Shown: positions 3,073-43,069, counted from the first letter of the stretch. The stretch is 64,000 nucleotides of DNA from Ignavibacteriota bacterium (GCA_963776275.1 CAVZMI010000014.1:96001-160000), one strand, 5' to 3'. Translations and numbers: made by a program. Notes: a model not told the origin generated them from the letters alone.

Positions 3073-3140
3073 CCCGTACGCTATTTGGTTAATTAATAGT
3101 ACAAAATGGCTACTATTTGAACGTCTATGTATTTATTATT
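3073..3140 (+). promoter_or_regulatory. Conserved promoter/operator element copy 1 (putative XylR-activated promoter)
   Basis: cccgtacgctatttggttaattaatagtacaaaatggctactatttgaacgtctatgtatttattatt; closely related copies at 21393-21460 (-) and 23572-23633 (+). Confidence 0.8.
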
Positions 3141-9754: not shown

Positions 9755-10069
9755 GAAGCAGGCGCACATCGGTCTGCGCATAGGTTCTACGTCTGCACGG
9801 ATTAGACGGCAAAAATGTTCGCAGGTAACAACAAACTGGCATTGACGATGCGACGCTTATGAGATCGCTCAAAATATATCATCAACATAACAGAACGAAC
9901 GAGCCGCAAGCACCCGACGCGTTTCCGGAAATCTGCTTATCCGTTGGAGAAAATCTATTTAAAATCAATGCGTTGTAATTGAAGGGAGGTGAATTATCCT
10001 AAAACGTTGATGGATTGAACATCCTGTAAATTACGATTCATTTCAACTAATATGAAAAAGGAGAGAGAA

Positions 10070-11906
10070 ATGAAAATATTTGGTTACTTTCTTGTTGTAC
10101 TCGGATGCCTGCTGATGTTCATGTTTGCACCGGGTACGGTATCGGCACAATATCCGGTATTCATTCCCCACGATTCCACGAATCTCGGGATCTATACGAA
10201 ACTCGGCATGATGGGCGCCGCGTGGGGTGACTTCAATAACGATGGCTATCTCGATCTCTTTCAGACCGGAAACGGTGTGCGAAGCCACTTGTATCAGAAT
10301 AACGGCGGTGTAAGCTTTACACGAGTATCGAAAGACTCGACGAATATGCCGGGAATCTTATTCGACTCGGTTGGTACTGCATATAAAGAAGGAGCCGTGT
10401 TCGCCGATTTCGACAACGATGGCAAACTCGATATCGTCTGGGCAAACCTCGGTCTGGCGATGTATAAAAACAACGGCTACTATTTCGATGATGTGACGTC
10501 CACCGCTTTCGGCACTACGGGAATCGCGAAGGGTCAATGCATCTGGGGAATTACTGTCGGCGATTTCGATAACGACGGCTATGTCGATATAGCGCTCGCC
10601 GGCGGCAACCAGGGGCCAAATTCGCTCGCGGGGCCTGTGTACATTCTCCATAACAACAAGGACATGACCTTCACTGACGCCGCAACGGCGCTCATCAACG
10701 GTAGCCTCGGACTGATCGAAGCGTGGAATCCTGCCTGGGTCGATATCAACAACGACGGATTTCTCGATTTGTTCCTCCCCTGCATCCGTACGGCTCCCGA
10801 GTACTGCGAAATGCTTCTCAATGACGGCGGCGGATTCACGCCGATGGATACAAGCACCGTCGGAGGATCGGGATTGAATATCAGATCGGCCATTGCATCG
10901 GCGTGGGGCGATTATAATAACGACGGGTTCCTCGATCTCATTGTGACTCCTTTTGTGAATGATAACGACGGCAGGCTGAAACTCTTCAGGAACAACGGAG
11001 ACAACACCTTCACGAACGTCTCGGTGGAAGCCAATATCGACACCAACTACGACGGTACCTCACGTGCGCTCGTGTGGGGCGATGTCGACAACGACGGCTA
11101 CCTTGATCTCCTCATGGGGAGTAGAACTCTCGGTCAGAGATTGTTTCACAACAACGGTGATGGAACCTTCGCCGACATATCGCATGAGGTCGCTCTGGAT
11201 ACGATCAAGGGACGCGATGAACGTACCGTTTTCCTTATTGATTACAACAGCGACGGCTTCCTCGATTACTATGGTTCCGGTCTTAACAGCTGGAAACGGC
11301 TCCTGACGAATAGCGGGAACGGTAATCACTGGATTGCGTTCCGGCCTGTCGGTGTTACCGATAATAAGGCCGGAATCGGCGCCCGATTTACTCTCGTGGC
11401 AGGCGGCAAACGGCAGACCCGCGTCATCGAAGGTGGATCAATCGGCGGATGCGGCAACGGCAATCTTTGGGCAAACTTCGGCCTCGGTCCGTCGACTACA
11501 ACGGTCGACAGCGTCATCGTCAACTGGCCGACGGGGGCGAGAGACGTTCTCGACAAATCTCACCATTGTCGATAAATATTATATCTTCACACAGGGTGTC
11601 GGTGCGGTCGTAGGAATCAAGGATCAACAAAGTTCAATTCCAGAGCAGTTCGAGTTGAAAGCAAATTACCCGAATCCCTTTAACCCGTCCACGACGATCG
11701 TTTACGCCCTGCCGAAACAGTCGAAGGTCACGGTCGAAGTATTTGACATGCTCGGAAGAAAAGTCGCGACACTCGTTGATGAAACGAAATCGGCTGGCGA
11801 ATATTCGGTCCAGTTCGATGCAACGAAGTATGCATCCGGTGTCTATGTGTACAAGATGTCGACACCGACAATTACGATTGCGAAGAAGATGATGCTGGTG
11901 AAGTAA
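10070..11906 (+). CDS. FG-GAP/CRTAC1-like beta-propeller with ASPIC/UnbV domain and T9SS CTD; frameshift ~11545
   Basis: Repeated WGDFNNDGYLDL-type motifs; NHWIAF...GIGAR...FGLG...VNWPTG (UnbV). ORF 11334..11906 supplies ANYPNPFNP...KKMMLVK. Confidence 0.82.
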
Positions 11907-11931
11907 ACGCTGTACGGCATTACCCTCAGAG

Positions 11932-11965
11932 AAGGGGGACTTGGCGGAAGCTGAGCCCCCCTTTT
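11932..11965 (+). terminator. Intrinsic terminator
   Basis: aagggggacttggc-ggaa-gctgagcccccctttt just after the FG-GAP gene stop. Confidence 0.7.
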
Positions 11966-12075
11966 AAGTTGTGAGTTATAAGTTGTGAATGAAGAATGTT
12001 ATTAGAACTATCATCGCCCGCTCTTTTATCCACTCATTCGTCCGCTCTTCAGTCTGCCCTGATTGCCATTTAAAT

Positions 12076-12109
12076 AAAAAGCCCCCTCGCCGCGATGGGC
12101 AAGAGGGCT
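12076..12109 (-). terminator. Intrinsic terminator of the minus-strand operon
   Basis: aaaaagccccctcgcc...ggcaagagggct hairpin just downstream of the PorV-like gene. Confidence 0.55.
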
Positions 12110-12131
12110 GGTGAAGTGCACTTCTTTCTTT

Positions 12132-13151
12132 TTAGAAACCTAATCGTACGCTGAACATGTGAACCGCGTTGAGGGCGCCGAAATCGATATACGCATAATC
12201 GAAATTCATTATGGTTCCTGCGATGACATAATGAAGTCCTGCTCCGTAGTTCAATCCCTGCTCCGTATCTTTGGCTGCAAGACCTTTGTATCCGGCCCGC
12301 AGCGAAATCATATCGTTGAACGTATATTCGGCGCCGACGTTGAGCGACTCAACGTCGTCGCTTGGGTGAAGTGCGTCAGCCGAAACGATCAGATTGCTGT
12401 TCAGCGCCCCCTTGAGAACGTCCATGGATACCCCGACGCGGAACAGAAGCGGCAGATCGAAATTATCGGTTTGCAGTCGTGCGTTGATGTTGGCATTGTT
12501 TCCATTCGCTCCCGGGTCGATATCGTGCTGGATCTGCAGGTCGCGGCCATCCAGCTGCATTTTCGAGCCGTAGTTCGAGATGCTCATACCAAGCATGACG
12601 CCGTGGAACCGTGTGTCGAAGAGTGCGCCTACGTCAAGGGCGAATCCGCCGGCACTGGTGTTATAAAGCCTTTCATTGATATATTTCACGTTGATACCGA
12701 TCGAGAACTGATCGGTAAGATTTCGCGCATATGTCAATCCAAAGGCATAACTTGCAGCATCGAACAACTCGCCCGTTCCTTCCGGCTGGGCAATCGTGGT
12801 TCGTTCCATCTCGCCCATTGTGAGAAACGTAGCGTTGACGCCGATGTTTCCGAAGTTGCTCAGTGGAAAAACGATTCCCGCATAGTTGAACGAGAGATCG
12901 GCAATCCATTTGGCGCTGGAAAACATAGCGTCAACATTGTTGAGTTTGGCAATTCCGGCCGGATTCCAGTACATGGCCGATGCGTCGTTCACAACCGAAA
13001 CACTGGCGCTTCCCATTGCGTTTGCCCGCGGACCGACGTCGATCCCCAGAAAGCTCGCAGCGGTCGTCCCGACTTTCGTCACTCCCTGGGCCTGAATATT
13101 CGGATTGCACACCAGCACCAATCCGAGAATGATTAAAATATACTTTTTCAT
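12132..13151 (-). CDS. PorV/PorQ-family (UPF0164) outer-membrane beta-barrel
   Basis: Signal peptide; KVGTTAASFLGIDVGPRANAMG, DASAMYWNPAG, LPLLFRVG, GAEY...LRAGY, DYAY...HMFSVRLGF with terminal Phe. Confidence 0.85.
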   Translation of the reverse strand: MKKYILIILGLVLVCNPNIQAQGVTKVGTTAASFLGIDVGPRANAMGSASVSVVNDASAMYWNPAGIAKLNNVDAMFSSAKWIADLSFNYAGIVFPLSNFGNIGVNATFLTMGEMERTTIAQPEGTGELFDAASYAFGLTYARNLTDQFSIGINVKYINERLYNTSAGGFALDVGALFDTRFHGVMLGMSISNYGSKMQLDGRDLQIQHDIDPGANGNNANINARLQTDNFDLPLLFRVGVSMDVLKGALNSNLIVSADALHPSDDVESLNVGAEYTFNDMISLRAGYKGLAAKDTEQGLNYGAGLHYVIAGTIMNFDYAYIDFGALNAVHMFSVRLGF

Positions 13152-13166
13152 TGTATGTCTTCTCCG

Positions 13167-16100
13167 CTATTTAAGGACTACGAATTTTCCGGTTTTTTCG
13201 CCGATACCGTCGGCTTTGATATGGTAAATGTAAATACCGTACGAAATTTCCAGGTTATCCTTCGAGAGCATATTCCACACCTCCGTCCCATCGATCAGCG
13301 GGGCGTCGTGTTCGAAGAGCCTTCACCAGTTGACCCCGGACATTGAAGATTTTGATCGTACATTTTTGAGGCAGGTGCGTGAAATGGAGAACCCGGTCTC
13401 CACGTCCGTTCGAATAGGGATTCCGCGGTTCCCACGAGTTCGTCACGATGTATGGGTTCGGAACCACCTTGATCATATCGAGCTCGGTCTTTGCCTTTTC
13501 CATATTGACGCCCTGTGCCACTGTGGTGAATTCATAGAGATCGTTGGTGAGAAACGGGTGCGTTAAGTTCAGAGTGAGAATGTCGCCCGATACCGGCAAT
13601 GTCGAGTCTGCCTGAGTTGACGAACTGATGGTGTACCTCACCCACCAGCTAGCAACCGTATCGCCCGGATTCAGGAATATAATTTCATCCGACAGACGTT
13701 TCTTCAAATTGAATGAAAACACCCCACTGCCGCCGTTGGCTGAATCGACTTCCCTGAATGCGAAATCAACTTTCTGGTTTGTCAGTGTGTTGAGAACCGT
13801 AAAGTTGACCCGTTTCGCGGGAATCACCTGCGAGCCTCTTTTGTATACTTTTGATGTGTCGATACCGACTTCCCCGATCACGACCGCATAGTTACCCGCT
13901 GGGAGGATCTCCACTCGTTGTTGGAGATAGGAATAGGGTCGGAAATCATATGTAGGGATACCCGTTTTACTCCACCCGGAGGTGGCAGCGTCGATGCCGA
14001 GTATTCCCGGATTTCCGCTGAATGAGAGTGTGAATCCCTCGACAACCGACACTCCTTCGCTGCCGTATCCCGTGAGCGGGCAGTTTTTCAACAGTGTATC
14101 GCCTGCGGTCATATTTATCAGGTTGAAACCCCCCGTCGCTTTCATCACGCTGGAACCGACCGTGGTATCGCGCGCCACAAAGGAAATCTGATATGTATTG
14201 TTCTCTTTCACCTGGGTATTATCGATGATGTTGTAGCCTATCGTTCCGCTTGCCGTATTTTGTGAACCGGCCATGAATTTCCCGTCCTTGAAACCGGCTT
14301 CAACATATCCGGCTGCTGGCGCTTCAGGCCGCACTACGACGACGTTTTTCCCTTTTTCTATCTCGCCCGAAGTCTGAACCGCAACGAACTTCGTGCATTC
14401 CGACGGGTCGATCCCCAACGAGTCGTCACCATGGTCGAATGAAGTTACGGCGTAGAAGTACGTTGTACCGTTCACCGCGGTAGTGTCGACCCAGTAATGA
14501 CGCAACCCGGTATTATTCCCGAGCCAGAAGTGTATTCCGGCGTTTTGTGCCTGGATGGGTGCAAACCCCGAGTATTCATTATCGAGGTCGAATTGCGCGA
14601 TCGGTTCTCTGGCGATGACGCTTCCATACCCGTCGGTAATCGGTGTGGCATCGTTGAATCCGGGATCCGTTGAACGGTAGATTTTGTATCCTTCGAAGTC
14701 TTTGCCGCTGATTGGATCCTCCGACGATTCGGCAAAATTATCCCAGAAGAGTGTTACTTTATGATCGCCGGCGATAGCTCTAAGCGTCGGGATGAGCGGA
14801 GCCTGGGCGAAGTTGTAGTTCTGGTTGTATGCCATAGCAAAATAGTTCTTGTTCCGGACGAGCGCGTCGAGGTTGATGCCGCAGACAATCGCCATCGAGA
14901 ACCGCTCGGTCTGACCAGGGACGATTGGAAAATATCCCGATCCAAACAGGAGCTCGACGTTCGCCGTCACGAAAGTGTAGGTGAACGATCCCGGAGCCAG
15001 ACCGTTCCACATCATTTCTGGATCGTACTGGAAGACCGTTCCCCAGTCGTAAAGGTAGAAGCTTGTGAGCCCGAGCATATCGCTTTCATCGATATCTGTC
15101 TTGTCGATATGCGGTTCACCCGGAAGGTCCGTTCCCCGTCCGGATGTCGGTAAACCGTCACCTTCGCCGGCATCGCCGGTGTTCGCCAGCCCATCCATAC
15201 CAACGTCGTCTGTCAGAACATTCCAGTCGCCATCGTTATCGATGCCGTCGTCGCGGCGTTCGTCGATCAGGGGATTGGTCTTTCCGTTTGTTGCCGGATT
15301 GGGATCGAGATAGTTGATATATTTATATCCTGTTCCGTCGTCGGCAATATAAAGGTAATGGAAAACGCCGTTCTGGTCGGCACGTCCTCTGTTCTCGTCG
15401 ATAAGTCCGTTGAGGTTATCATCGAACAGGTTATCGCCGATTTCCCTGAGCGTGTCACCGGCGTAATACTTATAGATTCTACCTCCGAATGGAATGAACA
15501 GCGTGTCGAGAGAGGTTTTACCGAGTTTCACCAGTGTGTCGGCAAGGGTTGTAACAACACGATCAAACGTTTTATAATTGATAAGAACGATCTGATCGTT
15601 CGGATTGAGAGCTCTCGATCGAAACATCGATTCTGACATCGTCGGGCCAGGACCGTTCTTTCCGTCGTTATCGTTGTCGATACCGTCGTAAGGATTTCCC
15701 GGACTCTCGAGGAAGGCGCCTCCCATATATCCGACAGGCCTCCAGTTACCGGCTCCGAGATCGTCGGCATCCCACATGTAAGCAATATCGAGGTTCCTGT
15801 CGTATGCAGCCTTGTCATCGCCGGCATCAGGCCCCGTGTTCGATTCACCCATATTGTTTCCTACTTTGAAACCGAAGACATTTTTGTCGAGAAGGTGGGT
15901 TCCGATATTCTGCAGGTCATAGAGGCAGAAGATCCCATCTTTAACCGACGCTTTCGACCATTGAAGTCCGCGAACGTACATCCGCAGGCCGAGGCCCCTT
16001 CGTTTGTGATTCATACTGTCGGGGAAAAATAATGCCATTTTATTGTTGTAGTCGTCGGCAACGAAATAGCTTTCTTCGTCTGCGTTGAATTTATTCTTTC

Positions 16101-16659
16101 CGAAGTATCCGTTCCATGCCGCCTTCAAGGAGTTTCCATCCGCGGCATCATTTCTCCAGCCTGGATCGGTTGCATCGTCCATTTTATCCGGCCAGAATGC
16201 GGGCCATGAGTTCGGCCACTCGGATCTTCCTTTCGACATTGCGATCCTGTTATTGTCCGGATCGGCAAATCCTGGGAGCGGCAGGAATGTCCACCATTCG
16301 TTCGTCACGGGATCGCGCGGTCCGTGCGTTTGCGAGATGTTCATACTCTTGTTCTCACTGAGAAGATGAACGGTGTTTCTGGTCGTATCGATGACTTCAG
16401 CGACCACCATCGGATTTCCGTCAACCAGGTAATAGTGCCCGCTGTTGATCGGCCATTCGCCTGCTACTTCAAGAGGATTTGTTTTGTTGCTGACTCTCCC
16501 TCCGAATGTTCCGTCATTGAACAGGCTCACACGAAAGTCGTTTCCTGAATGAACTCCGATGCGGGTTTCCGAATCCATCCCGTGCAGCGTACTCATCTGT
16601 GCCTGCATAACGGAGGTGGAGAGTATCACCACGACTATGAAAAATAAGATTCTTTTCAT
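13167..16659 (-). CDS. Large secreted protein (~1160 aa) with acidic Ca-binding-like repeats, FN3-like domain and atypical T9SS-like CTD; frameshift ~13315
   Basis: Signal peptide without lipobox; DGIDNDNDG, DDNLNGLIDE, DDGIDNDGDW, DDVGMDG; KVTLFWD..DFEGYKIYRS..YFYAVTSFD; IKVVPNPY..FTHLP..KIFN. The shifted frame continues EVWNMLSKDNLEISYGIYIYHI..GKFVVLK* (TAG 13167). Confidence 0.75.
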
Positions 16660-16675
16660 TCTTTTATCTCCTCGA

Positions 16676-19600
16676 CTAGAAACCTAAGATGACGCCGACT
16701 TCGACCCGGCGGGGCGCCGTGTACCAGCTCGGCTGATTCACGTAATCCTGAACTGTGCTTACCCTGTTGCTGGTATACGGTATCTTTCCCGGATTGATAT
16801 TCGTCGTGTATTCCGGACTTCCCGTATCGCCGTATACCACAGTGGCATCCCGCTGATCGAGCAGGTTGTAGACGTTCACGAAAAATTCAAGGCTGAGCCG
16901 TGATGCGAGCTTGAACGTCCTGTTGATCGTCAGATCAATACTTTTCTGATCAGGACGACGTGCGCTGTTCTGTACCAGACCCGAGACGGCGCCGGCTCCC
17001 ACCGACTCCGCAACCGGGAAGGCGGGTGTGTACGGGCGTCCGCTCCAGTACCTGCCGATGAGCGAAACCGTCCACTGGGACATGTTTAAGATGAATTGCA
17101 CGTTGAGCGTGTGCGTTTGATCCCAGCTCATCGGAATAAGACTCAATACCGGCGCCTGATTTGAAAGCTGGGCGTTGAACGCGTCCTGGGGATTCGAATA
17201 GGTACCTTCGGCTTTCTGGAACGTGTAATCGGCACGGAACGAATAATTGTCGGTGAAACGCTTTTCGATCTTTAACGTAATGCCGCGGACATTCTCGTAA
17301 TCCTTATTCTCGAAGATCGAATACGCAACGCCGGTTTTTAACGTCATGATTAGCGGGCTTGTTCCTACCCAGTCACGCACATCGCGGTAGAATATCGTCA
17401 GGTCGACGCCGATGTCGTCGCTCAGCTGTTGCTGCAATCCGAGTTCGTACATGACCGTCTTCTGCAGTTTGAGATTGGCATTTCCGAATAACGCATCTCC
17501 GGATCCGCTTGACACCTTGAAATCCGGATTGGAGTACAGATACTGAAACTCTGGCGTTTGGCAGAAGTGTCCGTAGGAGAAATGGATCACACCGCGGTCG
17601 GTGATCGGAAATGCGATTCCGAGGCGCGGGCTGAGCGACATTTTTGCATTAACTTTCTTCTGCATGAACGCCCGGCGCTCATCCGGCGTGTATTCATGAA
17701 TTGCACCGGAGGCGAGCTGCTCGGCGATATATTTGTCGATCGTGCCGGCATAGTTCGCGGGCATATCGACCCAGTTTGCGTAGATGTTCTTGTATTTGAA
17801 CGGACTGTAAATATTTGGATCTTCCGGATCGGCGGGTATTACCGAGTTTGGGTCGAAATAATCATAGCGCAGACCGATGTTCAGAATAATGTCGTTGAAT
17901 TCGGTTTTGTCCTGAACATAGGCCGATATTTCCCGGGGCTTCCGATCGTAATCGTTCCGATAGAGGCTTCCGACGGCCGGTATTGCCGGCATGAACGGCG
18001 TAATCGGCTGACCGGATTCATCAGTTTTCGCTACAATTTGGTATCCGTGAAGCGTGATCTCGTGGAGTCGTACTTCGGCCCCGACTTTCAGCTGATGCAT
18101 CTTGCTCACCTGGCTCGTCAAATCGACTTTTCCGACCCAATACGCTGTGCTACGCGTTGTATTCGTGACGTCCATTCCCTTGTTCAGGAAACTATAGGAG
18201 GCCGGTGCGTTGATCGACTCCCGATTGATATATCCGACCGGACCCGCTTGGATCGGGAATGTATTCATATCGTCCGCCCAGTCCGGTGATTGAATCGAGC
18301 CGCGCCTTACCCTGGCTGGTGTATGGATCGAATACCGCGGGAAATATCCCTTTGGTTGAGTCTGCAATAATACTCACAAGATAGGTGTTCGCAGTGTTCG
18401 GATCGTCCCAGACATATTGCTTCGATTCTGAGTAGAAACGACTTATGTGAACTTCATAGAATGTCGATTGTGAGAGGATCTGGTTCAATGTAAACATCAG
18501 TGTCAATCCAGTGGAATGGTACTGTGGCAGTCCATAGGGATCGTATTTGTAGTCGTGGGTGTTGAACTGATTGTAACCGCCCACTCCGGACACGTTGAAC
18601 TGGTAATCAGCAGTGTTGTACCGGAAATAGTTTCTGTCCCTGTCGTTCTTGTTCCAGAAAATGCTAAAATTTGTCTTCAACGACGAGATAGGCTGAAAGT
18701 TCAATTTTCCCTGTAAGGAGATCGCTTTATTCGGATTCATCGCCACCAGAGAGCTATCGCCCGGTGTTCCGTTAGGTCTAAACCAGTTCCTTCCGTAGAA
18801 ATACCCCTTATCATAAATGTATCGACCGTTAGCGAAGAAAGTCAAGTTGTCGCCCGTAAAGGGAACCGGTCCGCTCAAACTGAATTCTCCGTTGTAAATC
18901 GGAAATTCCCCGTTGTAAATTGGATTAAAATTTTTCAGCGGATGATCGCGGGTGCTTGAGACTATTCGTGTAAGTCCTTTAACCGTGGAATCGCTGACGG
19001 TCTGAAGAGACTGGTAGAGTCCAAATCGATCATCGTTGCTGAGATAATCGCCGCCGTAAATTTTGAGCTGACCCGTATAATTGCTTCCACCTTCCTTCGT
19101 GATGATATTCACGATACCCGACATCGCCTGGCCGTATTCGGCATTGAACGTGCCGCTCACGACCTGAACTTCCTGAATGGCGGAGTTTTCGACAGTCGTC
19201 CCCATCCGTCCGTCATAAACGTCGGTTGAGGATATGCCATCAACCCAGTAGGCGATTTCACCGGGTCTGCCGCCGCGCATATGCAGCCGCCCGTCGGACT
19301 CGATGATGCCGGCATTCAATCTAAGGACCTGTTGTAAATTCTGAACCGGCAGACTCTCAATCTGGTCGGCTGTAGTCGTCGAAAGGGATCCAGTCATATC
19401 TTTCACGATAAGTTTTCTTTCAGCTGTCACGATGACGGCTTCAAGTTCCACAGCCATTGGATGTAATTCGGTTAATAGTCGTGTCGTTAAGTCGATGTTC
19501 ACCCGGACGTTCTCGTATTGCACCTGCCGGTATCCGATCATTGTTACCGTAACTGTATAAGTTCCAGGTGGGATGTTCAGGATCATAAAATTCCCATCGA

Positions 19601-19781
19601 CATCGCTCGATGTGCCCATCCTGGTACCTTTCAGGAGGACATTCGCAGCAATCAGGGGTTCCCCGGTAGAAGCATCGGTGATTCTTCCCGATATCTTTCC
19701 GGTCGTGCCCGCAAACAACGCCGTTGCACCCGCCGCAAGCATCAGCAGTGCAAAGAGAAGGATCGAAGTTTTCACATTCAT
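16676..19781 (-). CDS. TonB-dependent outer-membrane transporter (non-SusC type, N-terminal carboxypeptidase-like domain); frameshift ~18250
   Basis: GTTGKISGRITDASTGEPL; plug RGGRPGEIAYWVDG...VSGTFNAEYGQAMSGIVNIITK; barrel GLRYDYF, SPRLGIAFPI, YELGLQQ, NVYNLLD, PRRVEVGVILGF. Confidence 0.88.
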
Positions 19782-19839
19782 AGCAGTTACCTTAATTTTG
19801 TCTGAGTGATTCTATTATTATAGTGCAGTTATGACACGC

Positions 19840-21331
19840 TTACAGATTTAGAAGCTTTCGTAACAATGCGTCGAGCTTCTGTGTGGAGATAAACAAAGGG
19901 AATTCCGGAACAACTACCGGGTATGGCACACCCTGCCTGTAGGCGAATAAATCGATATTTGTCAATGTTATTTTCGCCAGAACAGCCCGGTTTATAACAA
20001 TTCTATTGCTGTATTTCATTTGCAGGTTTTGAAGATACGAGGTCCAGAATTGACGTACTCCTTCCCTGTCGTCGGCATTGATTTTCCCGTCTTTCAGGGT
20101 GGATTCGATAATACGCTTTTGCTCGTCCTGCGCGAGTAATGCATCCTTCCACATTTCGACCGTCCGGAGGAACGTCGTCCGATGCATCAAGCGATCTTTC
20201 ATAGGATTCCAGAGTCAGATAATGATCGCGTACCATGTCGACGACAGCGAGCTTGAATTCCCGTTTGAAGTTCATGCTGTCCAAAGCAGTCGTCCGGAAT
20301 ACCAGCGGATGCGAAAGAATCTCCTTCCGAAAATCCCCGACACTCCAGGTCTTCTTGTCGATGGTGAAAAATGGAGCCCCGAGGTCGATTTCCTCCGCCG
20401 GAATCGGGAGTTCCCTCATCGTAATATGCAGAGAATCGCTTTGCTTTATCCGCACATAGTGTGTGAAGGCGAAGTCGGAGAGGGCGTTGAATGTCGCTTT
20501 ATTGAATTCGATTTTTTTCCCTTTCATCAGATCGGCCTGATATGATGCCCATAATTTCCGGGCTTTCGACTGACGAAGAAAATCCCTGACCTCGGCCCAT
20601 CTCATACGCTGATCGTCACCGCTTACGATCGGATAGTCCACACGGTTCACCACCCGCATCACAATGTATCCGCCTGTCCTAAGTCTCAGCGGGCCTATAA
20701 CCGCTCCGGTATCGAGAGGTGCGCTGAACAACGATTCATGAATCGCATCATCATCGGGATCTTTGAATCGCACCTTTCGGATCGGTTTTTTTCCCGCCGC
20801 CGTCTCAAGTTCTCTGAAAACTTCATCGGATAATTCGGGCGCATTCTCAAAGATTTCCGTAATTCGCCGGGCGAGATCCTGATCGCTCAACATATAGAAT
20901 TCCACCTCGTACTCCCTTTGTGATAGCGTGTAGGCTTTTTTCACTTCGGAGGTATCGAGCCGGACGTTCTGCATACCTACTTCATCCTGAAGTTTATCGC
21001 GCATCGACTGTTCTTTGATGCCTTTGAGCGCGGCTTGAAATAGGGGATTGTTAGGCAACGAGCTTGTTTGCCGGGCTTCGAGTGAAAGAATTTTTTCCGA
21101 GATCAGATTGTCGAGCGCGGCATTTTTATCCTTAAAGTTGTCGGGGCGGATTGTCAGTTCGGTTCGCAGCTTGAATTCTCTCACCGACAGCACCTTGTCG
21201 GCGATGCGGGCAAGGATTGTGCTGTCCGACTGGCTCAGGGCGTCAGTTGCGCAAAAAAGGAACGCCTGGCCGATCCAGAGGAACACACGGAATTTGCCGG
21301 TACGGGTAAAAGTCATACCTATTCTCTTCAC
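19840..21331 (-). CDS. SurA/PrsA-like periplasmic chaperone (parvulin PPIase-like, degenerate); frameshift ~20170
   Basis: Signal peptide; ILARIADKVLSVREF, LDNLISEKILSLEA, VIGPLRLRTGGYIVMRV and a second repeat of this pattern. Continues in ORF 19840..20202. Confidence 0.6.
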
Positions 21332-21392: not shown

Positions 21393-21460
21393 AATAATAA
21401 ATACATAGATGTTCAAATAGTAGCCATTTTGTGCCATTAATTAACCAAATAGCGTACGGG
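21393..21460 (-). promoter_or_regulatory. Conserved promoter/operator element copy 2
   Basis: Reverse complement cccgtacgctatttggttaattaatggcacaaaatggctactatttgaacatctatgtatttattatt, upstream of the chaperone-TBDT operon. Confidence 0.8.
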
Positions 21461-23571: not shown

Positions 23572-23633
23572 CGCTATTTGGTTAATTAATAGTCTTAAAT
23601 GGCTACTATCTGAACATCCCTGTATTTATCATT
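23572..23633 (+). promoter_or_regulatory. Conserved promoter/operator element copy 3
   Basis: cgctatttggttaattaatagtcttaaatggctactatctgaacatccctgtatttatcatt, upstream of the GH43 operon. Confidence 0.75.
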
Positions 23634-37830: not shown

Positions 37831-38037
37831 GGCTTCTTCCCGGACAGCACGAATCTCTTCTTCCAACGGACAATGGATCTATTCGAAACAGGATACTAAA
37901 ACATCATCACGCACTTTTTTCATCAATTGTCTTGCAGTTTTTACCGGATTGTCTTACTTTCTTATTATATCAACCTCCCGATTGCCGGAGTACTTGCGAG
38001 TCAATGTATTAATAAATTTAAAAACAGCGAGGGTCGT

Positions 38038-39537
38038 ATGAGTAATGGGATTCAGAAACTTCCACTGAGAGAAAAAATAGGTTATGGATTTGGCGATTTA
38101 GCGTCCTGTCTGTTCTGGGCGACGATCATGTCACAATTGCTTTTCTTTTATACTGATGTATTTGGTCTGACAGGGAAAGCCGCGGGGTTGATGTTTTTTG
38201 TTTCCAGGATACTCGATGCTTTATTTGACGTGGTCATTGGCATGACAGCCGACCGGACTAAAAGCCGGTGGGGTAAATTCAGGCCATATATACTTTGGGG
38301 GGCTGTCCCGTTGGCTGTGGCCGCAGTTCTGGCTTTCACGACACCCGATTTTGGAGATACCGGGAAACTGATATATGCCTATGCCACATTCATCGTTTTT
38401 ATGTTTCTCTATTCCACGGTCAACATTCCGTATACAGCGTTGCTGGGCGTGATAAGCGGCGACCCGGTGGAGAGAACGAGTGCCTCATCTTTTAAATTTG
38501 TAGGTGCATATTTAGGCGGTTTTATTGTTTCCGCTACAGTTCTGCCGTTTGCCGCGCATTTTGGTCAGGATAATGCCGCTAAAGGATGGCAGATGACGAT
38601 GGGCATCTATGGTATAGCGGCTATTGTTTTCTTTTTAATAACGTTCCTTTCAACGCGCGAACGTATTCAACCTATTGCCAAAGAAAAAACATCGATAAGG
38701 GACGACTTGAAGGACTTGTCAAAGAACGTACCCTGGATGTTGTTATTCGTCGTAACGATTCTATTTATCCTGTTTGTCTGCATCCGTATGAGCGTGACCA
38801 CACACTATTTCAAGTATTATGTCGGAGAACAGGCCAGTCCGTTAGTTGCCCAAATTTATAATTTCCTGTTGAAATATATCATTAATCCGTTGTGCGGCAT
38901 TTTCGGATGGCAGCAGAACATTCTGCTCGACGAAACTCATAAATTTGGCTATGAAGTGCTCGCGTCTATTTTTAATACGCTCGGACAGGGAACATCTCTT
39001 ATCGGTGTCCTTCTGGTTCCCTGGTTTGCCAAGCTTCTTGGAAGGAAGAATGCGGTGATAGTTCTCTTTATTGCCGCGATGATTTTCACCGGCTCATTTT
39101 ATTTCTTCAAACCGGAAAACTTAGTGCTGATTTTTGTTTTCCAACTTTTCGGATCATTGACGGGGGGACCGATTTCCGCGCTTTTGTGGGTTCTGTATGC
39201 CGATACGGCCGACTATTCCGAATGGAAGACAGGCAGAAGGGCCACGGGACTTGTTTTTTCGGCTTCAATAATGTCGAACAAGATTGGATGGGCTGTCGGG
39301 AGCATGATCGCAGCCTTAATCCTGGATAAGACCGGATTTATTGCCAATGTGGTACAAAACATAGATGTCCTGGATGGTTTGAAGGCGATGATGAGCGTAA
39401 TCCCGGTTGCGATTGGAGTGGTTGCCTTAATCATTCTGGCTTTCTTTTATAAATTAGATGAACCGACAATGAAAAAAGTTAAGATGGATCTAGAGTCGAG
39501 ACGACAAGAGAGTGGAGAAAAAGCTGCAACTGCATGA
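38038..39537 (+). CDS. GPH-family (MelB-like MFS) oligosaccharide:cation symporter
   Basis: EKIGYGFGD, FYTDVFG, DRTKSRWGKFRPY, NIPYTAL, ADTADYSEWKTGRR; many hydrophobic helices. Confidence 0.92.
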   Translation: MSNGIQKLPLREKIGYGFGDLASCLFWATIMSQLLFFYTDVFGLTGKAAGLMFFVSRILDALFDVVIGMTADRTKSRWGKFRPYILWGAVPLAVAAVLAFTTPDFGDTGKLIYAYATFIVFMFLYSTVNIPYTALLGVISGDPVERTSASSFKFVGAYLGGFIVSATVLPFAAHFGQDNAAKGWQMTMGIYGIAAIVFFLITFLSTRERIQPIAKEKTSIRDDLKDLSKNVPWMLLFVVTILFILFVCIRMSVTTHYFKYYVGEQASPLVAQIYNFLLKYIINPLCGIFGWQQNILLDETHKFGYEVLASIFNTLGQGTSLIGVLLVPWFAKLLGRKNAVIVLFIAAMIFTGSFYFFKPENLVLIFVFQLFGSLTGGPISALLWVLYADTADYSEWKTGRRATGLVFSASIMSNKIGWAVGSMIAALILDKTGFIANVVQNIDVLDGLKAMMSVIPVAIGVVALIILAFFYKLDEPTMKKVKMDLESRRQESGEKAATA

Positions 39538-40678: not shown

Positions 40679-43069
40679 ATGCAATACGGATATTTTGACG
40701 ACAAAAATAAAGAGTATGTTATTAAAAGGCCCGATACACCAAGGTCCTGGAGTAATTATCTCGGTTCGACAGAATACGGTGCTATCATCACCAATAATGC
40801 AGGCGGATATAGTTTTTATCACTCTGCCGCACAGGGACGGTTTACCCGGCTCCGGTTCAATACTATTCCGATGGATCAGCCGGGCCGCTATCTTTATGTC
40901 CATGATAAAGACAGTAAGGATTTTTGGTCGACTTCCTGGCAGCCTGTAGGAAAATCGCTGAAGGTATATAAATCCGAATGCCGGCATGGTACCGCGTATA
41001 CAAAAATCTTGTCAGAATACTCGAACATAAAAACCGAGACTCTGTACTTCGTACCGTTAAACAAAACCTATGAATGCTGGTTGGTGAAGGTGACAAATAC
41101 AGGCCGGAAAAAAAGGAATTTAAAATTGTTTACATATGTCGAATATGCAAACAATTGGAATATCTATCAGGATCAAATTAACCTCCAGTACTCCCAGTAT
41201 ATTATGAAAATGGGTGTCGTGAAAAAAATGATCGACCACGGCACCAATGTCATGATGCCTTACGGAGAAGAACGAATTGAAGGCGTCGAACAGGCTCGCC
41301 ATTCGTTTTTAGCTGTGAGCGGCGCTCCCGTGAAAGGCTTCGATACAGACCGGAATGTATTCCTCGGGCCCTATCGAACATATGCCGACCCGATTGTAGT
41401 GGAACAAGGACGCTGCAAGAATTCGATAGCCGTTGGCGATAATGCATGCGGCGTCTTGCAGGTCGATATCTCACTTCGACCGGGTGAATCAAAAGAGCTG
41501 GTTGTCCTCATGGGCATCGGGATGGCGGGTATCGAAGGAAAACAGGCGGTGCGAGAGTCGGGGAAACCGGAGAAAGTGCGCAAGGAATTTAACAAGCTAA
41601 AAAGTTTTTGGCATACTCGCCTGAAAGGAATGACCGCCAAAACGCCAGATAAAGAGCTTAACAGCATGCTGAATATGTGGAACCCATACAACTGTCTTAT
41701 CACTTATGCCTGGTCGAGAGCAGCAAGTCTCATTTATACGGGTGAGCGGGACGGCTTGGGATATCGTGATACGGTACAGGATATGCTAGGTGTTCTCCAT
41801 ACAATTCCAGATGAGGTGAAAGAGCGTCTTGAGCTCATGATTACCGGACAGGTCTCTACGGGTGGTGCAATGCCCGTAGTCAAGCCATTTCTACACAAGC
41901 CGGGGAGTGAAAAGGCTCCGGAAGAAAAAGAATATCGTTCGGATGATTGTATGTGGTTGTTCAATACTATACCTGCCTATGTAAAAGAGACCGGCGATAT
42001 CGCATTTTATGACAAAGTTCTGCCGTACGCCGACAAAGGCCAGGATACGGTGGTTGGACATTTAAGACGGGCGATACAATTTAATCTGGATCGTTCGGGA
42101 GCGCACGGCCTGCCCTGCGGTTTATTGGCGGACTGGAACGACTGTCTGGAACTCGGCCATAACGGTGAAACCACATTCGTGGCGTTTCAATTACGATATG
42201 CACTGAAGACCTACATCGAGATTTGTGAAATGCTCAACAAACCCGATGAAGTGCGATGGGCACAGGGTTGTCTCAACAGGTTGGATGAAAATCTTGAGAA
42301 ACATGCATGGGATGGTGAATGGTATCTGCGTGCTTATCGGGCAGACGGTTTGAAATTCGGTTCAAAGGAAAATAGCGAGGCGTCGATTTTCCTGGAACCG
42401 CAACCCTGGGCTATATATAGCGGACATACGTCAAGGGAGCAATCCGAAAAATTAATGGACGTTGTCGATAAACACCTTTCAACGAATTTCGGTCTTATGA
42501 TCTGCGCTCCACCGATCGAAAAAACCGATCCACGAGTAATCAAGGCGAGGTTGTTCAACAAGGGAATGAAGGAGAATGCCTCAGTTTTCTGTCATACCCA
42601 GGGTTGGGCAGTTATAGCTAAAACGCTCATAGGCAGAGGGAAACAGGCTTATGATCTTTATCGAAAATTCATGCCTGCGGCATATAACACAAAAGCAGAA
42701 ATTCGCCAGATCGAACCGTATGTGTATAACCAGTTTACCAACAGCAAATACAATACGCGGTACGGTGCTTCTCGCCTCCCGTGGTTGAGTGGGAGTGCGT
42801 CGTGGGCATATTATACTGTTACACAATATATCCTCGGTATTCAACCGGATTACTCCGGCTTGCGCATCGATCCTTGTATACCGCCTCAATGGAAAGAGAT
42901 TCAGATAACAAGAAGATACAGGAAGAAAAACTTCAACATCAAAATTGAAAATAGGAACGGCGCTCAAAAAGGTGTAAAGAAACTGATCGTCAACAGTGAA
43001 GAAATAAACGGCAATCTTATTCCTTTGGATTTAATGAAAGAAGATAACGAAGTCCTTGTTGTGATGTAA
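40679..43069 (+). CDS. GH94 glycoside phosphorylase (cellobiose/chitobiose phosphorylase-like)
   Basis: MQYGYFDD..EYVI.RPDTP..W.NYLG, GLGYRDTVQD, RSDD, ADWNDCL, WDGEWYLRA, KENASVFCH, EPYVY.QF, WLSGSASW. Confidence 0.92.
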   Translation: MQYGYFDDKNKEYVIKRPDTPRSWSNYLGSTEYGAIITNNAGGYSFYHSAAQGRFTRLRFNTIPMDQPGRYLYVHDKDSKDFWSTSWQPVGKSLKVYKSECRHGTAYTKILSEYSNIKTETLYFVPLNKTYECWLVKVTNTGRKKRNLKLFTYVEYANNWNIYQDQINLQYSQYIMKMGVVKKMIDHGTNVMMPYGEERIEGVEQARHSFLAVSGAPVKGFDTDRNVFLGPYRTYADPIVVEQGRCKNSIAVGDNACGVLQVDISLRPGESKELVVLMGIGMAGIEGKQAVRESGKPEKVRKEFNKLKSFWHTRLKGMTAKTPDKELNSMLNMWNPYNCLITYAWSRAASLIYTGERDGLGYRDTVQDMLGVLHTIPDEVKERLELMITGQVSTGGAMPVVKPFLHKPGSEKAPEEKEYRSDDCMWLFNTIPAYVKETGDIAFYDKVLPYADKGQDTVVGHLRRAIQFNLDRSGAHGLPCGLLADWNDCLELGHNGETTFVAFQLRYALKTYIEICEMLNKPDEVRWAQGCLNRLDENLEKHAWDGEWYLRAYRADGLKFGSKENSEASIFLEPQPWAIYSGHTSREQSEKLMDVVDKHLSTNFGLMICAPPIEKTDPRVIKARLFNKGMKENASVFCHTQGWAVIAKTLIGRGKQAYDLYRKFMPAAYNTKAEIRQIEPYVYNQFTNSKYNTRYGASRLPWLSGSASWAYYTVTQYILGIQPDYSGLRIDPCIPPQWKEIQITRRYRKKNFNIKIENRNGAQKGVKKLIVNSEEINGNLIPLDLMKEDNEVLVVM

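Follow-up and report, generated by a model that had tools for sequence, protein, structure and literature searches.

A candidate SusC/SusD-independent glycan-import module combining a TonB-dependent transporter, a large protein with a variant type IX secretion tail, and a private PorV/PorQ-family barrel in Ignavibacteriota

Results

A four-gene operon in a xylan locus

We analyzed a stretch of 64,000 nucleotides from an Ignavibacteriota bacterium (GCA_963776275.1 CAVZMI010000014.1:96001-160000; hereinafter the window), which belongs to a genome of 3.7 Mb with 96.4% completeness. Our subject is an operon on the minus strand of the window, running from position 21331 to 12132, that we consider a candidate outer-membrane glycan-import system of a kind distinct from SusC/SusD. 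Its genes code, in the order of transcription, for a SurA/PpiC-like chaperone homolog, a TonB-dependent transporter, a large secreted protein, and an outer-membrane β-barrel of the PorV/PorQ family, the large protein ending in a variant of the C-terminal domain (CTD, or tail) recognized by the secretion system of type IX (T9SS):

19843..21331, minus strand: SurA/PpiC-like chaperone homolog of a 496-residue class, in two frames (20003-21331 and 19843-20214)
16676..19781, minus strand: TonB-dependent transporter of about 1035 residues, in two frames (PF13715, PF07715, PF00593)
13167..16659, minus strand: large secreted protein of about 1163 residues from an unannotated family, in two frames, with a Sec signal, a predicted β-supersandwich, β-sandwiches, and the variant tail
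13167..13467, minus strand: variant T9SS CTD at the end of the large protein, spanning VVPNPY to the stop and extended N-terminally relative to canonical tails
12132..13151, minus strand: PorV/PorQ-family outer-membrane β-barrel of 339 residues, intact (NF033709, 202.2 bits)
12080..12109, minus strand: terminator-like hairpin with a T-run (12 pairs, eight of them G-C), 23 nt past the barrel stop

The intergenic gaps between these genes are 61, 16, and 15 nt, in agreement with an earlier reading made from the sequence alone (the sequence-only reading), which had described four close-packed, co-oriented genes with a PorV-like gene directly 3' of the large one. The hairpin at 12109..12080 is the strongest among 14 in the region; the total number of hairpins is not above that of shuffled sequences. 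Insertions and deletions in the operon were assessed against L001, a contig of a metagenome-assembled genome from peat, which represents an 85%-identical relative with all four genes intact.

A TonB-dependent transporter outside the SusC family

The transporter shows an N-terminal CarboxypepD_reg-like domain followed by a plug and a large barrel, with both PF07715 (38 bits) and PF00593 (85-94 bits) recovered above their cut-offs. On the SusC/RagA model TIGR04056, an intact ortholog scores 73.8 bits, far under the cut-off of 368.25, with model positions 2-206 alone being aligned, consistent with the earlier observation that the SusC signature is missing from this protein. Across the genome, TIGR04056 yields 22 matches, the best of 93.6 bits and none above the cut-off, and the SusD models PF07980 and PF14322 yield none at all, with the control being matched in Bacteroides thetaiotaomicron. 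The absence of a recognizable SusD, originally noted for the window, hence extends to the whole genome, and these searches found no SusC/SusD pair elsewhere in it.

Of the 301 genomes sampled from the phylum, 166 have SusD; cross-tabulation with the large-protein family (see below) gives 73 genomes with both, 53 with the large-protein family only, 93 with SusD only, and 82 with neither. Strict complementarity between the module and SusD is rejected by the 73 genomes with both, and the phyletic pattern instead indicates a parallel system, which stands alone in this genome and many of its close relatives, rather than a strict replacement of SusD.

The first gene of the operon gives no Pfam or NCBIfam match, either in its window copy or in the intact copy of L001. 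By blastp, it groups with genes that flank the module at 19 of 36 loci; five homologs from other loci all have Rotamase (PPIC-type) domains and four have a SurA_N match, above the cut-off in L041 only. Its ESM Atlas neighbors, by features as well as by structure, are PpiC clusters. Because of these homologs and neighbors, we provisionally assign it at the family level to the SurA/parvulin proteins, with a degenerate copy in this genome. The sequence-only prediction of a SurA-like product was thus probably right for the family, whereas the window copy itself lacks a Pfam match.

A large protein with a predicted β-supersandwich head

The large protein has a Sec signal peptide without a cysteine and contains the motifs DNDNDG and DNDGDW, in keeping with its prior description as a protein lacking a lipobox or a catalytic motif and displaying DxDxDG-like repeats. 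Loops of the DxDxDG type are typical of calcium sites. No Pfam or NCBIfam match was obtained for it, the best E-value of a PDB sequence-profile search is 0.32, and all 30 ESM Atlas neighbors are unnamed. A known enzyme or solved relative was thereby sought in Pfam, NCBIfam, and the PDB sequence profiles, and none emerged. The family is nonetheless large: out of 8000 candidates scored, at least 3919 proteins pass an E-value of 0.001, and the best 120 homologs, spanning 838-1286 residues, include none with a precomputed Pfam domain.

We obtained an AlphaFold2 model of the large protein from a 50-sequence alignment (pLDDT 80, pTM 0.69) and compared it with 48,161 PDB representatives using a fold-search method independent of Foldseek. 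Residues ~18-758 superpose on the β-supersandwich that aldose 1-epimerases share with enzymes of GH94, GH15, GH65, and GH116, where it is the N-terminal domain, with Z-scores of 20.6 (8rf9), 20.3 (9ju0), 20.0 (6ggy), and 19.4 (1lf6). For these matches (Z 20.6-19), 246-276 residues are aligned at a root-mean-square deviation of 3.0-4.3 Å; identity in the aligned part is 7-10% for the top ten rows. The GH174 fucanases are likewise matched, with Z-scores of 15.0 (9k1g) and 12.2 (8jd7). Since ~260 of 740 residues align, the sandwich must hold large insertions, with the Asp-rich loops among these. The catalytic (α/α)6 domain has no counterpart in the model, whose remainder is all-β and ends in the β-sandwich tail. 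Foldseek with the whole model retrieved only FN3/Ig chains of low TM-score, with PorZ (5m11) at rank 4 and a TM-score of 0.09, which tells little beyond the β-sandwich nature of the C-terminal half. The predicted architecture is accordingly a galactose-mutarotase-like β-supersandwich head, followed by β-sandwich domains and then a variant type-A tail. The β-supersandwich fold occurs almost entirely in carbohydrate-active proteins, although a shared fold does not amount to a shared function.

A tail subclass associated with private PorV/PorQ-family barrels

The barrel matches NF033709 (PorV/PorQ family) against a cut-off of 90, across model positions 1-325 of 326, and falls below the equivalog cut-offs of both PorV (NF033710; 88.1 bits vs 250) and PorQ (NF033711; 110.8 bits vs 220), as well as that of PorV2. 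No PorP/SprF match is listed for it at E-values up to 0.01, nor up to 1. The tail is under the cut-offs of the type-A models TIGR04183 and PF18962 (23 and 27, respectively), as two intact members of the family reach 19.4 bits (the intact ortholog, on TIGR04183) and 17.4 bits, and the paralog 14.6 bits; it also stays under the cut-off of 27 for the type-B model PF13585 (CHU_C), with 13.5 bits (E 0.078). NCBI names a close homolog of the large protein as a type-A protein, and the tail can be aligned with canonical ones over its core. In two sister modules, the tail matches the PorZ model at its C-terminus (E 1.6e-7 and 2.2e-5), and weak matches to the ends of PorU and PorZ are seen for one family member.

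These family tests lead us to reject a type-B CTD with a PorP/SprF barrel, i.e., the precedent from which the sequence-only reading had reasoned, because the barrel is of the PorV/PorQ family and the tail is probably a divergent type-A one. Two other parts of that reading are supported, namely a private barrel partner and a tail that differs from the canonical CTDs nearby, by its scores under the type-A cut-offs and by an extra N-terminal part. By sequence, the nearest named relatives of the tail are those of PorZ and PorU, and the fitting analogy is the anchoring of PorZ on PorQ. PorZ and PorU are reported to be held on PorQ and PorV, and PorV proper to act as a shuttle (PMC5562754); a review proposes that cognate PorV-like barrels shield a tail from cleavage (PMC10202324).

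We built a hidden Markov model (HMM) from the last ~106 columns of the family and searched it against the 7393 open frames of at least 100 residues in the genome. The six best matches (126, 102, 66, 59, 58, and 35 bits) all have a PorV/PorQ-family barrel within 908 nt, and five of them within 300 nt, whereas ranks seven to eleven (29-27 bits) have no barrel close by. Canonical tails score at most 29 bits, and most match the core alone, from about model position 36, leaving the first ~35 positions unmatched. As the top matches all adjoin barrels and the lower ones lack the N-terminal extension, we recognize a tail subclass, defined by this extension, that is associated with private barrels.

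We further predicted a complex between the barrel (residues 22-339, from an alignment of 32 rows) and the tail (residues 1041-1155, from one of 50 rows), as the sequence-only reading had suggested. An interface was predicted in each of three runs, with ipSAE values of 0.90, 0.90, and 0.91 against 0.00 for the best of three controls, a partner pLDDT of at least 78, and at least 90% of the contacts common between runs. For comparison, 58 of 80 solved complexes attain this mark, as opposed to two of 110 mismatched pairs.

The genome further encodes components of the T9SS proper, namely SprA, PorU (962 bits, above the cut-off), and a split PorZ-like gene, and has 11 PorV/PorQ-family barrels in all. 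A better PorV_fam barrel (309.6 bits) lies near SprA on contig C20. The PorZ-like gene (contig C21:119661-121907) is in three pieces with stops between them, and because of this split it falls short of the cut-off, with 241 bits against 260.

Conserved gene order, co-divergence, and paralogous modules

With one genome per species, a cross-phylum scan recovered 26 loci, which come from Ignavibacteria, KSB1, WOR-3, Marinimicrobia, Calditrichia, and Balneolales. In 24 of them the large gene has the transporter gene directly upstream, the misses being L018, whose contig begins 148 nt before the large gene, and L003; the barrel adjoins in 12 of the 13 loci whose contig has room for it, the miss again being L003. 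Within the phylum of the window, the large-protein family is present in 126 of the 301 sampled genomes (E 1e-20 or better), with three taxonomic families lacking it among the genomes searched (0/63, 0/22, and 0/16). In 20 loci picked to span families, and hence not a random draw, the three genes are adjacent throughout, 18 with the order transporter-large-barrel and two with transporter-barrel-large. The synteny anticipated across related phyla is thus seen both within and beyond the phylum.

The partners also co-diverge, a point for which the same reading had proposed a test: over 31 loci, the distance matrices of the three proteins correlate with r of 0.90-0.92, matched by none of 1000 permutations, with kinship contributing much to these values. 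Two paralogous modules of the genome have identical nearest neighbors for all three proteins in each case, which indicates that the module duplicates as a unit. The large-protein family itself has one to three copies per genome.

Among the 11 PorV/PorQ-family barrels of the genome, six occur in an arrangement of transporter, tail-bearing protein, and barrel. These are the window module, a further copy from its family, situated on a different contig with a LacI regulator before it, and four others, whose middle proteins of 636-1063 residues are unrelated in sequence, one of them having a CBM_5_12 domain. Besides the window module, contig C14:12001-47000 (L032 and L033), upstream of the window, has three transporter/tail-protein/barrel modules, two of which are a tandem duplicate. 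The L032 and L033 modules are each followed by a protein of 418-419 residues, with an IPT/TIG domain in the one scanned, and one cargo has the CBM_5_12 domain, which suggests a chitin or cellulose module.

Glycan context and a shared upstream element

Pfam scans of the window locus identify GH10, two GH30-like, two GH43 (one with CBM6), and GH35/42-like domains, an α-L-arabinofuranosidase C-domain, a SASA esterase, CE4, an MFS_2 transporter, GH94, and a LacI-type regulator (2018-2887), with the canonical type-A Por_Secre_tail in eight scanned window neighbors. The GH10, GH30, and GH43 domains bear out the earlier designation of this region as a xylan locus. The MFS_2 sugar transporter and the GH94 phosphorylase are encoded downstream of the xylanolytic genes (37927-39537 and 40679-43069, plus strand), and likely represent the inner-membrane step and a branch for cellodextrin or related β-glucans.

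A 37-nt element occurs upstream of the operon and of two enzyme units:

21418..21454, minus strand: copy 1, 87-123 nt upstream of the chaperone gene, the core of a ~70-nt conserved stretch
3079..3115, plus strand: copy 2, before the Laminin_G_3/GH10/GH30 enzyme unit
23572..23608, plus strand: copy 3, before a GH43 gene

There are exactly three copies in the genome, all in the window (0 expected from 100 shuffles), situated about 90-180 nt upstream of, and oriented towards, the three transcription units. All three orthologous sites are kept in L001. The earlier description of a promoter element common to the operon and the enzyme units is thereby supported, and its presence at three units together with its retention in the relative argues for co-regulation of the operon with the xylanolytic units.

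Clustering of flanking open reading frames (ORFs) in 36 loci revealed a homologous neighbor downstream of the barrel in 18 and a second conserved neighbor in six. When scanned, these 24 neighbors showed Por_Secre_tail in 20, CBM_20 in 11, and an alpha-amylase domain in six. A cluster of putative LacI-type regulators (one member Pfam-scanned) is present in eight of the 36 loci. L040, a locus of the window's subfamily, has GH10, GH3, and CBM4_9 neighbors, and at L005 the neighbors are a sugar-binding ABC protein and GH94; some loci have non-glycan neighbors, viz., GcpE, rhomboid, and amine oxidase at L009. Given the recurrence of CBM_20, alpha-amylase, and LacI neighbors, the gene neighborhoods define the family as mostly an α-glucan module (CBM20, GH13, LacI), with a xylan-associated branch in the window and its relatives.

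Frameshifts in the operon

Relative to L001, alignment places single-base insertions near 20174 in the chaperone gene, 18245 in the transporter gene, and 13318 in the large-protein gene. An operon truly inactivated in this genome by these lesions would be one explanation, and would be in line with the occurrence of three +1 insertions against an intact relative, none of them in a long homopolymer. However, the frames downstream of all three insertions are open as far as the normal gene ends, the products are 79-99% identical to those of the relative, and both the PorZ-like gene and the barrel of another module are split elsewhere in the genome, as is an FG-GAP/ASPIC-UnbV gene in the window. 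For these reasons the three frameshifts are probably assembly indel errors, and we regard a dead operon as unlikely. A search of sequencing runs listed one DNA run (0.11 share of words), which gave just three matches of 18-19 nt, and no RNA run. The transporter additionally has an in-frame insertion of 21 nt relative to L001 (window ~18904-18924, minus strand) that duplicates the seven residues PIYNGEF.

The FG-GAP/ASPIC-UnbV gene, which has a canonical T9SS tail, lies at 10052-11906 on the plus strand in overlapping frames (10052-11575 and 11334-11906). Its L001 ortholog is a single ORF of 611 residues, making the split in the window a fourth frameshift within about 20 kb.

Discussion

A proposed import mechanism

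We propose, with somewhat more confidence than doubt, that the operon specifies an outer-membrane glycan-import system that does not use SusC/SusD and that has a capture partner tethered to a barrel. The TonB-dependent transporter would move oligosaccharides across the outer membrane. The large protein would be exported by the T9SS, and its variant tail would remain uncleaved and stay on the extracellular face of the adjoining PorV/PorQ-family barrel, in the manner of PorZ on PorQ and PorU on PorV. Being thus tethered near the transporter and contacting it, the β-supersandwich head might bind oligosaccharides that T9SS-secreted GH10, GH30, and GH43 enzymes set free from xylan and might pass them on, conceivably acting as a lid on the transporter in place of SusD. 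The SurA/PpiC-like protein could serve as a periplasmic chaperone for the large barrel or the cargo, and the MFS_2 carrier of the locus would take the sugars over the inner membrane, with the 37-nt element coupling the expression of the operon to that of the enzyme operons.

Several observations weigh against this proposal. The sole exception to synteny, L003 (KSB1, 10001-16463), carries the large gene twice in tandem and gives neither a transporter nor a barrel match within 10 kb, and kinship inflates the distance correlations and explains much of r. Because 73 of the 126 genomes carrying the large-protein family also have SusD, the module is not a simple SusD substitute, and the phrase 'in place of SusD' cannot be taken generally. 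Complexes of PorV-type barrels with tails have already been solved, and the success of the tail-barrel prediction may for that reason reflect likeness to them; nor does the prediction show specificity for this barrel over the canonical PorV of the genome. Three of the four operon genes are frameshifted in this assembly. The fold match demonstrates a fold common in sugar enzymes rather than binding, and the conservation of the family, with 47% mean column identity in the 50-sequence alignment and ~50% across phyla, is high for a ligand-specific binder. Many Asp, Glu, and Trp residues are invariant, and such conservation suits an enzymatic or structural role equally.

This conservation, with its invariant acidic residues, keeps alive an alternative in which the large protein would be an enzyme at the cell surface, belonging to a new family (a hydrolase, lyase, or epimerase-like enzyme), that trims the polymer before import, the barrel serving as its tether. 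Aldose epimerases indeed have the supersandwich fold, which also makes up domains of many glycoside hydrolases and polysaccharide lyases, including the GH174 fucanases. However, its counterpart in GH15, GH94, and GH65 enzymes is the non-catalytic N-domain and the (α/α)6 domain is the part wanting in the model; no catalytic family is retrieved with Pfam, NCBIfam, or PDB sequence profiles; many of the invariant aspartates fall in DxDxDG-type loops resembling calcium sites; and secreted glycoside hydrolases are already encoded at these loci. We therefore give the enzymatic interpretation a small share of probability. No larger is the share we accord to the barrel being a mere private export shuttle, substituting for PorV at the SprA translocon, with the large protein released or anchored to lipopolysaccharide independently of the transporter. 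The shuttling of PorV proper (PMC5562754), the scores of the barrel on both PorV and PorQ models under either equivalog cut-off, and the inability of complex prediction to separate transient from stable binding are compatible with such a role. Against it, the barrel gene is strictly beside those of the transporter and the cargo and the three proteins co-diverge, which would be unneeded for an export helper, and the tails are nearer to the retained tails of PorZ and PorU than to the canonical cleaved ones.

Still more improbable, in our judgment, is that the module imports a non-glycan substrate or has a housekeeping role at the outer membrane, with the neighboring genes for carbohydrate-active enzymes being incidental. 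Non-glycan neighborhoods, such as that of L009, and the low copy number of the family do offer something to this view. It is opposed by the recurrence of starch-binding and amylase neighbors, by the putative LacI cluster, by the xylan and cellodextrin genes beside members of the subfamily, by the CBM_5_12 domain in the cargo of a sister module, and by an upstream element common only to the operon and the xylanolytic units.

Relation to known systems

The SusC/SusD (RagA/RagB) utilisomes of Bacteroidota share with the module a transporter of ~1000 residues with a CarboxypepD_reg-like domain, whose gene directly precedes that of a surface partner. In both, the pair is placed within substrate-specific loci that also encode secreted glycoside hydrolases, carbohydrate-binding proteins, and a regulator, and a genome has several paralogous copies. 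The two differ in that the transporter of the module is under the SusC/RagA cut-off, its partner is a ~1163-residue all-β protein with a T9SS tail and no lipobox rather than a TPR-like SusD lipoprotein, and its obligatory third gene, that of the PorV/PorQ-family barrel, has no counterpart in SusC/SusD systems. With the PorZ-PorQ and PorU-PorV pairs of the Porphyromonas gingivalis T9SS attachment complex, the module shares a type-A-like tail, proposed to be uncleaved, and barrel-bound surface anchoring, and the sister-module tails match the C-terminus of PorZ. In contrast to those pairs, the barrel of the module is a private paralog encoded beside its cargo and a nutrient transporter, the cargo lacks the PorZ and PorU domains, and six such pairs exist in this genome besides the components of the T9SS itself. 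Type-B CTD proteins with PorP/SprF barrels (SprB/SprF) are similar in that a cargo whose tail is non-canonical is encoded in a cluster with its own barrel, proposed to anchor it, but the families of both barrel and tail are different. TonB-dependent glycan loci without SusD are reported from proteobacteria (for example Xanthomonas) in a review (PMC13543919); these likewise import glycans without SusD, but have neither a T9SS-tethered partner nor a PorV-type barrel. Finally, the N-domains of GH94, GH15, GH65, and GH116 enzymes and the aldose 1-epimerases have the fold predicted for the large protein at residues ~18-758 (Z about 20); in comparison with the enzyme N-domains, the large protein has no catalytic (α/α)6 domain, no detectable sequence similarity, and large Asp-rich insertions.

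Literature text searches found no published description of the module, although supplementary locus tables may hold some. Two reports describe possible positional equivalents: the xylan locus Rmar_1070-1073 of Rhodothermus marinus has a TonB-dependent receptor followed by three hypothetical proteins, beside a true SusC/SusD pair (PMC6987092), and the starch operon Mros0761-0759 of Melioribacter roseus has genes named SusC, SusD, and SusE (PMC3534657).

In the many glycan degraders related to Bacteroides that lack or under-use SusD (Ignavibacteria, KSB1, Calditrichota, Marinimicrobia, Rhodothermia, and Balneolia), the SusC/SusD paradigm leaves oligosaccharide uptake across the outer membrane unexplained. 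Soils, peat, sediments, and the ocean harbor these groups in abundance. The module offers a concrete, testable candidate for SusD-free oligosaccharide uptake in them. Tentatively, and as something plausible rather than probable, we suggest that bacteria of the FCB (Fibrobacterota-Chlorobiota-Bacteroidota) group outside Bacteroidia have a second glycan-import architecture, in which a transporter would be combined with a T9SS-delivered supersandwich protein docked by its uncleaved tail on a private barrel, the stable trio being duplicated as a module onto new substrates (α-glucan, xylan, cellodextrin, and chitin) as SusC/SusD is. If so, the role of PorV/PorQ barrels would extend from secretion accessories to general surface anchors, the T9SS would be a builder of uptake machines beyond being an exporter, and the module would provide a marker for polysaccharide utilization loci missed by predictors based on SusC/SusD.

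Variant arrangements

Departures from the basic gene arrangement were seen at two other loci: L054 (2704-14504) has two identical-looking barrels and a partial second large gene, and L056 (5901-18895) has a second large gene upstream of the transporter. In the genome of the window, contig C34:3335-6814 (L036) encodes a protein of 545 residues with a weak match to the variant tail, 86 nt from two tandem PorV/PorQ-family barrels and with no transporter nearby in the searches made, which may be another cargo-barrel pair of a different kind.

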